Notes: generated from the letters alone by a model not told the origin. A stretch of 22,295 nt of DNA from a virus (IMGVR_UViG_2579779049_000014:1-22295), one strand, 5' to 3'; shown: positions 4,078-5,235, counted from the first letter of the stretch. Numbers and translations: made by a program.

Positions 4078-4701
4078 ATGTCATCAATCCGCTTAACTAC
4101 GAGAATGAAAGAGGAAATCGCTCGTAACGCTTTAATTAAGTCCGGGGTGTTCACTGAACTTGAAGAAGTAACAAAGTTAAAGAACCAGCTTGCACTTGAC
4201 GCCAGAGTTATTGCGTTTGGCGGTAAAAAGAAAACTGAGGAAGTGGATCAGTTATCATCCAAGTTGGTAGCTATAAGTGAAGAACTTGGAAAGATGGGAT
4301 GTTCATTTTACTCATACGATGTTAGTTCTACTTCAATTTATCTGACTGTATCTGGCAGAAGGGTTGGATGGCATTCATATGGGAAAGACGGCAACGGCAA
4401 AGATATATTGCTCCCCACCCCAGAAAAAGATAAATGCATGTTTGACGCAGAACACGAAATAACAAAAAGGTTTGATGAAATCTGCGCATTGCAACAAAAA
4501 CTTGAAGCCAAGAAAAAGGATATCGAATCAAATGTATGGGCTGCTTTGAACTCAGTCACAACAGTTAAGCGACTTATTGAAGTTTGGCCTAAAAGCAAAG
4601 AATTGCTACCAAAAGAAGCAGATAAAGCAAGTACAGCACTTCCTGCTTTACGGGTAGAAGATTTGAATAAGATGATTGGACTTCCTTCCGAGGCCGCATA
4701 G
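4078..4701 (+). CDS. Hypothetical accessory protein of the early-left operon (ral/sieB region)
   Basis: 207 aa from the ATG at 4078 (GAGAGGAA upstream); predicted coiled-coil segments; no family recognised. Confidence 0.55.
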   Translation: MSSIRLTTRMKEEIARNALIKSGVFTELEEVTKLKNQLALDARVIAFGGKKKTEEVDQLSSKLVAISEELGKMGCSFYSYDVSSTSIYLTVSGRRVGWHSYGKDGNGKDILLPTPEKDKCMFDAEHEITKRFDEICALQQKLEAKKKDIESNVWAALNSVTTVKRLIEVWPKSKELLPKEADKASTALPALRVEDLNKMIGLPSEAA

Positions 4702-4716
4702 TCGGCCTTTATTTTT
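4691..4716 (+). terminator. Rho-independent terminator overlapping the stop codon
   Basis: AGGCCG-CATAGT-CGGCCT followed by TTATTTTT. Confidence 0.6.
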
Positions 4717-4764
4717 GGCATAAACAAGAGAATAAACACTGCACTGAATTATTTGAGGTGAGAT

Positions 4765-5235
4765 ATGACAAAATCATGGAGCGTACCTTTTCCTGAATCA
4801 GAAACTGAACATGATGGAATGCCTGTTTTCTGGAGATTCCAGGCGACAGTTGAAGAAGATGGAATCAAAATATTCGCACTTCAATATATAGCTTTTCATC
4901 AGACAGAGCATTATGCATGGTTGGTTCCTGCGCATTGGATTGTTAATTTTAAACCAGCACCAAATCAGTGGTTACAGGAATGGAAACAAAGGAGAAATAG
5001 ATATGCAATTAAGAAAGTAGCAAAAAATGCAGAAAGATCTTTTGCATTCCCAACGAAGAAACTTGCCATTGAAAGTTTATTGCGCCGGAAGAAATACCAT
5101 TTAATGAGAATCAAACAAGATTTGGCTGTTGTATCAACTCTTGTTGATGGGATGAAGAATATTGATACATCAATACCAGATATTGAATATAACTTTGGAC
5201 ACAACCAAGAAACAGAAAATTGGGTATTTTATTAG
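4765..5235 (+). CDS. Hypothetical accessory protein of the early-left operon
   Basis: 156-aa ORF with GAGGTGA 4 nt upstream; no family recognised. Confidence 0.55.
   Translation: MTKSWSVPFPESETEHDGMPVFWRFQATVEEDGIKIFALQYIAFHQTEHYAWLVPAHWIVNFKPAPNQWLQEWKQRRNRYAIKKVAKNAERSFAFPTKKLAIESLLRRKKYHLMRIKQDLAVVSTLVDGMKNIDTSIPDIEYNFGHNQETENWVFY

Follow-up and report, generated by a model that had tools for sequence, protein, structure and literature searches.

Two accessory genes, of the Nmad5 and phrog_1636 families, in the variable slot between N and cIII of a lambdoid Escherichia coli prophage

A 22,295-nucleotide stretch of viral DNA (IMGVR_UViG_2579779049_000014:1-22295; hereafter the window) carries two genes, here termed ORF1 and ORF2, between the antiterminator gene N and cIII, where phage lambda carries ral. 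ORF1 is a member of the Nmad5 family and ORF2 of phrog_1636, and we regard the identity and anatomy of this interval as close to certain. The genes represent two independent, horizontally shuffled early-gene cassettes in the slot between N and a block of hairpin and terminators. We tentatively favor, at a little less than an even chance, the reading that both encode early counter-defense or host-interference proteins. Their action would fall in early lytic growth and would depend on contact with a host or defense component, not on catalysis. The arrangement itself is ordinary lambdoid mosaicism of already catalogued gene families and not a new kind of system.

Organization of the early-left region

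The window derives from a lambdoid E. coli prophage of the Shiga-toxin type and covers the immunity and early-left region. The nearest database relatives are Stx-converting phages and prophages of E. coli O157 and O111, and the plus strand of the window corresponds to the leftward direction of lambda. A cro-like gene (824-1069, minus strand) is followed by a gene for a LexA-type repressor with Peptidase_S24 and HTH domains (1130-1867). The rex position, between the repressor and the pL-like promoter, is occupied by two genes. The first, in the position of rexA directly after the repressor (1905-2246, plus strand, 113 aa), is a full-length match to PDC-S43 (E=7e-42), a candidate defense family of PADLOC, also matches Pfam DUF3024 (E=2e-31), and is probably a prophage-expressed defense candidate. 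The second (2436-2969, plus strand, 177 aa) has no match in Pfam, NCBIfam, or PADLOC, and a strong hairpin with a T-run lies 3' of it, at about 2970-2995.

A pL-like sigma-70 promoter (3497-3525, plus strand; TTGACC, a 17-nt spacer, TATCTT) lies within operator-like repeats and is the sole plus-strand promoter-like site that a promoter scan found in 3300-5900. It is followed on the same strand by a boxB-like hairpin (nutL; 3591-3605, GCGCTGACAAAGCGC), which we take to be a P22-type boxB match, and by N (3725-4066, 113 aa; Pfam N_peptide, E=8e-26; phrog_271, E=1e-46). ORF1 (4078-4701, plus strand, 207 aa, pI 8.3) starts 11 nt after the N stop codon, and ORF2 (4765-5235, plus strand, 156 aa, pI 9.1, GC3 27%) is preceded by a 63-nt spacer. 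Downstream, also on the plus strand, are a hairpin with a 14-bp stem and no T-run (5248-5279, -23.9 kcal/mol), which forms the downstream anchor of the variable slot, and two terminator-like sites. The first of these (5340-5367; GCCCTC-CAGTGT-GAGGGC, then CTTTTTAT) is homologous to lambda at about 33950-33923, and the second (5378-5405; AACGCTTC-ACTC-GAGGCGTT, then TTTCG) to lambda at about 33512-33485. The cIII mRNA thermoregulator (Lambda_thermo; 5414-5472, plus strand; Rfam RF01804, 88.5 bits, E=1.2e-21) overlaps the start of cIII (5427-5567, plus strand), whose product, 46 aa as read here, matches Pfam Lambda_CIII and is 100% identical to lambda CIII over 46 aa.

The preliminary description had placed two ORFs between N and the tandem terminators that precede cIII. 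Their coordinates were right, and both ORFs have good ribosome-binding sites and conserved homologues. The recombination module beyond cIII (5867-7131, plus strand) is different from lambda Red and encodes an AAA_24/AAA_22 P-loop protein (226 aa), then a 195-aa protein without a Pfam match.

ORF1 is a full-length Nmad5 protein

ORF1 had been described as belonging to no recognized family, which proved incorrect. It belongs to Pfam Nmad5 (PF18757) over its full length: the score is 235.7 bits (cutoff 27; E=7e-70), and residues 4-203 align to profile positions 1-206 of 206. It also matches phrog_1965, and RefSeq names it 'Nmad5 family putative nucleotide modification protein'. Full-length homologues with 45-60% identity are present in Klebsiella, Enterobacter, Pantoea, Erwinia, and Providencia; they share the same N-terminus and many invariant columns. 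ORF2 homologues show the same two properties, and, judged from their alignments, both ORFs are genuine conserved genes.

The AlphaFold2 model of ORF1 (pLDDT 84) gave 11 matches at E<=1e-3 in a Foldseek search of BFVD, with a best TM of 0.75. Four of these carry the name nucleotide modification associated domain (5), and the others are unnamed or uncharacterized phage proteins; no other fold was matched in the PDB. As modeled, the fold is helical, without a recognizable catalytic or enzyme-like fold, and the protein is hydrophilic by average hydropathy (GRAVY -0.36). ORF1 has no match among the known and candidate anti-phage defense profiles of PADLOC-DB 2.0, NCBIfam yielded nothing useful, and neither the ORF1 profile nor a profile of the Nmad5 C-terminal motif has a significant match in the PDB. 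The best match to the motif was a 31-residue stretch of a mitochondrial oligoribonuclease (E=0.73), which we treated as chance. ORF1 and ORF2 are not distant homologues of each other (hhalign probability 0.3%), the validated 'NMAD' defense system of DefensePredictor is Nmad2, a different family, and a preprint on OLD that mentions HK542 has no bearing on either ORF.

ORF2 belongs to a family without assigned function

For ORF2, the earlier statement that the family was not recognized was right in substance, as the family has no assigned function, but the family is catalogued as PHROG 1636: ORF2 matches phrog_1636 over positions 1-156 of 156 (E=6e-112). Profile searches gave no match in Pfam, NCBIfam, or the PDB. 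In PADLOC-DB 2.0 the only match was to Cas1_II (E=0.018 over 45 residues), which does not amount to membership. Homologues with 55-73% identity occur in Pectobacterium, Brenneria, Cronobacter, and Rosenbergiella. When 1.84 billion representative proteins were searched with a profile, 87 relatives were retrieved, all small phage proteins of about 130-165 aa. None of the 40 that were aligned and scanned contains a Pfam domain, and all the PHROGs they match lack an assigned function; all 40 match phrog_1636 and 34 also match phrog_13631. The profile of this wider family has no significant PDB match. ORF2 is hydrophilic on average (GRAVY -0.55) and has a conserved helix rich in Lys and Arg. Its AlphaFold2 model, built from 21 sequences, was unusable (pLDDT 55) and was kept out of the fold search.

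Relatives of ORF2 are always in the early-left operons of temperate phages, although their place varies: after N, just before xis-int, or ahead of RecT/YqaJ. Genes of the family follow at least four different N/Nun types. Distant relatives are found beside genes for AAA_24, helicase, or Prim-Pol proteins, or within the structural module.

Comparison of the slot with lambda

BLAST against lambda gave three collinear matches. Positions 4698-4746 match lambda 34087-34040, immediately 3' of the ral stop codon; 5245-5367 match 34045-33923, comprising the ral-ea10 spacer with the 14-bp hairpin and a terminator; and 5368-5662 match 33522-33228, comprising a terminator, cIII, and the start of kil. The proposed likeness to the lambda ral/sieB region is therefore correct at the exact junctions, with flanks 94-97% identical to lambda. 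Compared with lambda, ORF1 stands in place of sieB-orf28-ral, and ORF2 is a 498-bp insert (4747-5244, plus strand) between the post-ral terminator and the hairpin, as defined by homology breakpoints against lambda and HK542. The ea10 gene is missing from the window, so the two lambda-like terminators at 5340-5405 are side by side, whereas they are about 430 bp apart in lambda (33950-33485). We presume that they are lambda tL2a and tL2b.

ORF1 and ORF2 share with ral the slot, the flanking DNA, the strand, and the operon; their place in the pL operon, after N and ahead of the block of hairpin and terminators, is also that of ral. In contrast, the proteins themselves differ: Ral has 66 aa against 207 and 156 aa, neither ORF matches the Ral family (Pfam PF11058), and BLASTP against lambda Ral returned nothing. 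Similarity to SieB (BLASTP E>=0.28) or Ea10 was likewise not detected in either sequence.

A terminator-like hairpin (4690-4719, plus strand; GAGGCCG-CATAGT-CGGCCTT, then the T-run tail TATTTTTGG) separates the two genes. It has a 7-bp stem with 5 GC pairs and a folding energy of -11.0 kcal/mol, and meets the pattern of a Rho-independent terminator. The hairpin proper spans 4690-4709; its left arm lies within the final codons of ORF1, so that it overlaps the ORF1 stop codon, whereas the right arm, like the T-run, has its homologue in the lambda DNA directly 3' of ral. The pattern behind the earlier claim that the first gene ends in an intrinsic terminator is thus present, and we treat the site as a predicted terminator. 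A terminator scan found exactly three plus-strand sites downstream of pL (4690-4709, 5340-5357, and 5378-5397), each of about -10 to -11 kcal/mol.

Copies of GAATAA[A/G]CACTG flank the ORF2 cassette, at 4730-4741 (GAATAAACACTG) and 5239-5250 (GAATAAGCACTG). We rejected GAATAANCACTG as a general cassette-boundary repeat, as it occurs once per locus elsewhere (in 74 of 88 related loci it is present once, adjoining the hairpin) and its duplication is specific to this tandem arrangement. At its start (4747-4762), the cassette retains a piece of the window-type N gene, from the 3' end of that gene (TTATTTGAGGTGAGAT). This remnant is kept even where the cassette follows a 933W-type N or Nun, and is longer there (60-100 nt). 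Because the remnant travels with ORF2, we conclude that the gene was at first linked to one N type and moved with the tail of that N. Lambda and at least 120 IMG/VR contigs have the 5248-5279 hairpin in identical form. No Rfam family matches it, and it may serve in processing, in pausing, or as a recombination boundary.

The GC content of ORF1 (40%) and ORF2 (36%) is low against 49% for the window, which fits acquired accessory genes. Low GC, a terminator or boundary sequence of their own, and swapping at short conserved junctions are features that these cassettes share with lambdoid morons and boundary exchange. Classical morons are transcribed in the prophage from a promoter that they carry, whereas no promoter-like site accompanies the ORF1 and ORF2 cassettes, which rely on pL. 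In the GenBank record of HK542, a 'boundary sequence 4' feature lies under the match to the ORF1 region.

The interval between N and the hairpin is a variable cassette slot

We surveyed IMG/VR loci anchored on the 5248-5279 hairpin and classified the content between N and the hairpin in the 88 with enough upstream sequence. Ral was present in 35 loci, ORF2 in 16, and Nmad5 in 11, and at least five other cassettes also occurred, variously combined. The commonest order was N-Ral (19 loci), followed by N alone (14), N-ORF2 (13), and N-Nmad5 (8), then N-Ral-phrog_3054 (5), N-SieB-Ral with SieB on the minus strand (4), and N-Ral-Nmad5 (3). Smaller numbers of loci contained phrog_10407, phrog_2471, phrog_2201/37111, phrog_1273, or DUF7446. 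The phrog_3054 occupant is a 149-aa putative membrane protein. This interval is a true variable cassette slot. Its commonest occupant in related phages, Ral (confirmed by Pfam PF11058, E=1.6e-48), is also the only functionally characterized one. Ral and Nmad5 co-occur in the three N-Ral-Nmad5 loci and are therefore not simple substitutes.

The two genes of the window are also found apart. HK542, mEp235, and SH2026Stx1 have N-Nmad5 without ORF2, and phage Huey has N-ORF2 without Nmad5. The order N-Nmad5-ORF2 was seen in none of the 88 hairpin-anchored loci and in one of 80 ORF2-anchored loci. Among 5426 complete E. coli genomes, ORF1 was present in 210, ORF2 in 597, and the tandem pair in 23, and many of the carriers are Shiga-toxin prophages. 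Both genes are common in E. coli prophages. They are plausible but putative counter-defense genes and good candidates for testing.

In many O157-type Stx2a phages (LC616032 and others), Nmad5 matches only from residue 34 on, and the region aligns in several pieces that extend over about 3.2 kb, as if an IS had inserted there. SH2026Stx1 has an IS with three transposase ORFs in place of ORF2.

Predicted timing of expression

ORF1 lies upstream of the first predicted terminator and so should be made with N, before antitermination. The promoter and terminator patterns point to an immediate-early product that would be co-transcribed with N. ORF2 and everything beyond it would here be read mainly by N-modified polymerase, given the predicted terminator at 4690-4719, and we can reasonably infer that ORF2 depends on N antitermination in this phage. 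In most other phages ORF2 comes directly after N (in the commonest class only 9 nt separate the two) and would be immediate-early there too.

This layout also bears on whether ORF1 and ORF2 could be superinfection-exclusion or defense genes expressed from the prophage, like sieB or rex. The lambda slot does hold sieB, the phrog_3054 occupant looks like a membrane protein, and the PDC-S43 candidate is in the rex position of the window. However, lambda sieB is on the opposite strand, while ORF1 and ORF2 are on the pL strand after N, with spacers of 11 and 63 nt; both are co-oriented with pL and have no promoter-like site ahead of them, which makes a SieB-like role in the lysogen unlikely. The sequence and arrangement of SieB were found in neither ORF, neither belongs to a PADLOC family, and both proteins are hydrophilic. 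We consider an exclusion role highly improbable.

Gene neighborhoods of Nmad5 and the question of base modification

The name of the family, 'nucleotide modification associated domain 5', raises the alternative that ORF1 takes part in DNA base modification, chemically shielding phage DNA from restriction. The name comes from the neighborhood of the type seen in Pseudomonas phage YuA, where the Nmad5 gene lies between genes for a putative kinase and a dU hydroxymethyltransferase (hydroxymethylase), near DNA polymerase A. In the M6-like phage SN1, Nmad5 has been counted in a thymidine hypermodification cassette (PMC9476957). The Nmad5 proteins of YuA/M6-like Pseudomonas phages belong to the same family as ORF1, are 41-44% identical to it over the C-terminal 87 residues, and are likewise encoded in an early or DNA-metabolism region. 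They differ in sitting among kinase, hydroxymethylase, and aGPT-Pplase genes, whereas ORF1 has no such enzymes around it.

A possible link to modification in the window is an ORF at 8842-9336 (plus strand, 164 aa), about 4 kb from ORF1, which scores 24.2 bits with the Mom DNA-modification family, below the cutoff of 27.1. We rejected it as a partner of Nmad5, since none of the 13 other Nmad5 loci with sufficient downstream sequence contains it. The neighbors of ORF1 are N, ORF2, cIII, and AAA_24, and the association with nucleotide-modification enzymes was found neither here nor in HK542, SH2026Stx1, the Klebsiella phages, or the Providencia phage. The modeled ORF1 structure does not resemble an enzyme fold, and in Dhillonvirus Nmad5 is encoded by a lone, oppositely oriented gene inside the structural module. 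As the name rests on gene neighborhood only, the database label 'nucleotide modification protein' should not be read as a function, and we find a role of ORF1 in base modification very unlikely.

The wider contexts of Nmad5 are diverse. An N4-like phage carries the gene between ThyX and primase, adjoining DNA polymerase, and Salmonella phage SPN3UB has it in the nin region. In temperate phages from Klebsiella, Providencia, and metagenomes, it opens the leftward early operon, or nearly so, just after the repressor. In the Providencia phage it is also near DNA polymerase A. Across the contexts examined, no constant partner gene was found for Nmad5 or for the ORF2 family.

Some of these neighborhoods would suit accessory factors of replication or recombination that bind DNA, the host replisome, or a repair component in favor of phage DNA metabolism, as Gam, Kil, Abc2, and further pL-operon products do, and that would not be directed at a dedicated defense system. 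Such a role is consistent with Nmad5 lying by ThyX, primase, and DNA polymerase in the N4-like phage and by DNA polymerase A in YuA and the Providencia phage, with distant ORF2 relatives adjoining AAA_24, helicase, or Prim-Pol genes, and with the AAA_24 and 195-aa proteins forming the next module of the window. ORF2 is basic with a conserved Lys/Arg-rich helix, and the Nmad5 motif described below is retained in phages whose hosts differ widely, which suggests that its target is conserved universally. On the other hand, the searches found no DNA-binding or replisome-interaction domain in ORF1 or ORF2. The cassettes are dispensable, many sibling phages that share the recombination module lack them, and Dhillonvirus tolerates deletion of nmad5 (PMC11846954). 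We think an accessory role of this kind unlikely, although it deserves more weight than exclusion or base modification.

The conserved Nmad5 motif and escape from Tmn

We aligned ORF1 with remote relatives from SPN3UB, the N4-like phage, YuA (gp15), and Dhillonvirus. The most conserved part of Nmad5 is C-terminal and reads T162-x-K164-R165-L-I-E-x-W170-P171 ... A190 ... L196-N197 ... G201-x-P203 in ORF1 numbering, with T162, K164, L166, W170, P171, A190, L196, N197, G201, and P203 invariant across the alignments.

Dhillonvirus escape from the Tmn defense has been mapped to nmad5 substitutions, K216E in SM_A8 and K296E in SMS22 (PMC11846954). In that work, reverting the mutation restored sensitivity to Tmn, deletion of nmad5 gave no escape and left the phage viable, and cloning of the wild-type gene was toxic (PMC11846954). 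Dhillonvirus Nmad5 is from the same Pfam family as ORF1 and its gene is non-essential in Dhillonvirus. The two proteins have in common an N-terminal R-L-T...I and a C-terminal T-x-K-[KR]-L-I-x-x-W-P-E...L-N...G-x-P. However, they are only 26% identical, and a large insert is present in the Dhillonvirus protein, which has at least 254 aa and is the longer of the two. Their genes also differ in setting: Dhillonvirus nmad5 is on the opposite strand in the structural module of a virulent phage, whereas ORF1 is in the early operon of a temperate phage.

K216 of SM_A8 is the second Lys of ...T-D-K-K-L-I-K-A-W-P-E... and aligns with ORF1 R165, so the escape change hits the invariant Nmad5 motif. On the strength of this alignment, the substitution would fit a binding surface of alterable specificity rather than loss of a 'DNA modification enzyme'. 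The authors of that study call Dhillonvirus Nmad5 a 'DNA modification enzyme', a label we ascribe to the family name, and read the Tmn result differently (PMC11846954).

Counter-defense as the preferred reading

We prefer the counter-defense reading because ORF1 and ORF2 occupy the Ral slot, are predicted to be expressed very early, are dispensable, and are low in GC, and because the Nmad5 fold is modeled as non-enzymatic and the family motif contains the site of Tmn escape. Several points weigh on the other side. The argument from position rests on a single characterized neighbor, Ral; most slot occupants have no assigned function, and 14 of the 88 loci have nothing recognizable in the slot. 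Nmad5 also occurs in replication and nucleotide-metabolism modules of lytic phages, and relatives of ORF2 occur by AAA_24 and Prim-Pol genes, so a role in DNA metabolism fits equally well. The Tmn result, for its part, is a gain-of-function point mutation in a homologue with 26% identity.

A broader form of the counter-defense reading is more doubtful. The slot after N may be a combinatorial array of immediate-early counter-defense cassettes, comparable to an anti-CRISPR locus, with Nmad5 as a non-enzymatic inhibitor scaffold and ORF2 as a second, unrelated inhibitor. Ral would then be the only member understood so far, and the Nmad5 scaffold would span lambdoid, N4-like, YuA-like, and Dhillonvirus phages. 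The surface formed by the invariant T-x-K-[KR]-L-I-x-x-W-P-E would contact defense or host proteins and, if it is the contact site, a single K-to-E change at the equivalent of ORF1 R165 could retarget Nmad5 to Tmn. As exact positional alternatives to ral, with probable co-transcription of Nmad5 and N and an escape mutation in the invariant motif, the two genes are concrete candidates for an anti-defense screen. If they were confirmed, the slot would be useful for mining further inhibitors, as at least five more cassette families are present.

Outside the early region, as it appears, the window also contains a 2806-aa ORF on the minus strand (11999-20419). An 'LPD38 domain-containing protein' is among the RefSeq features under the matches that cover this part of the window.
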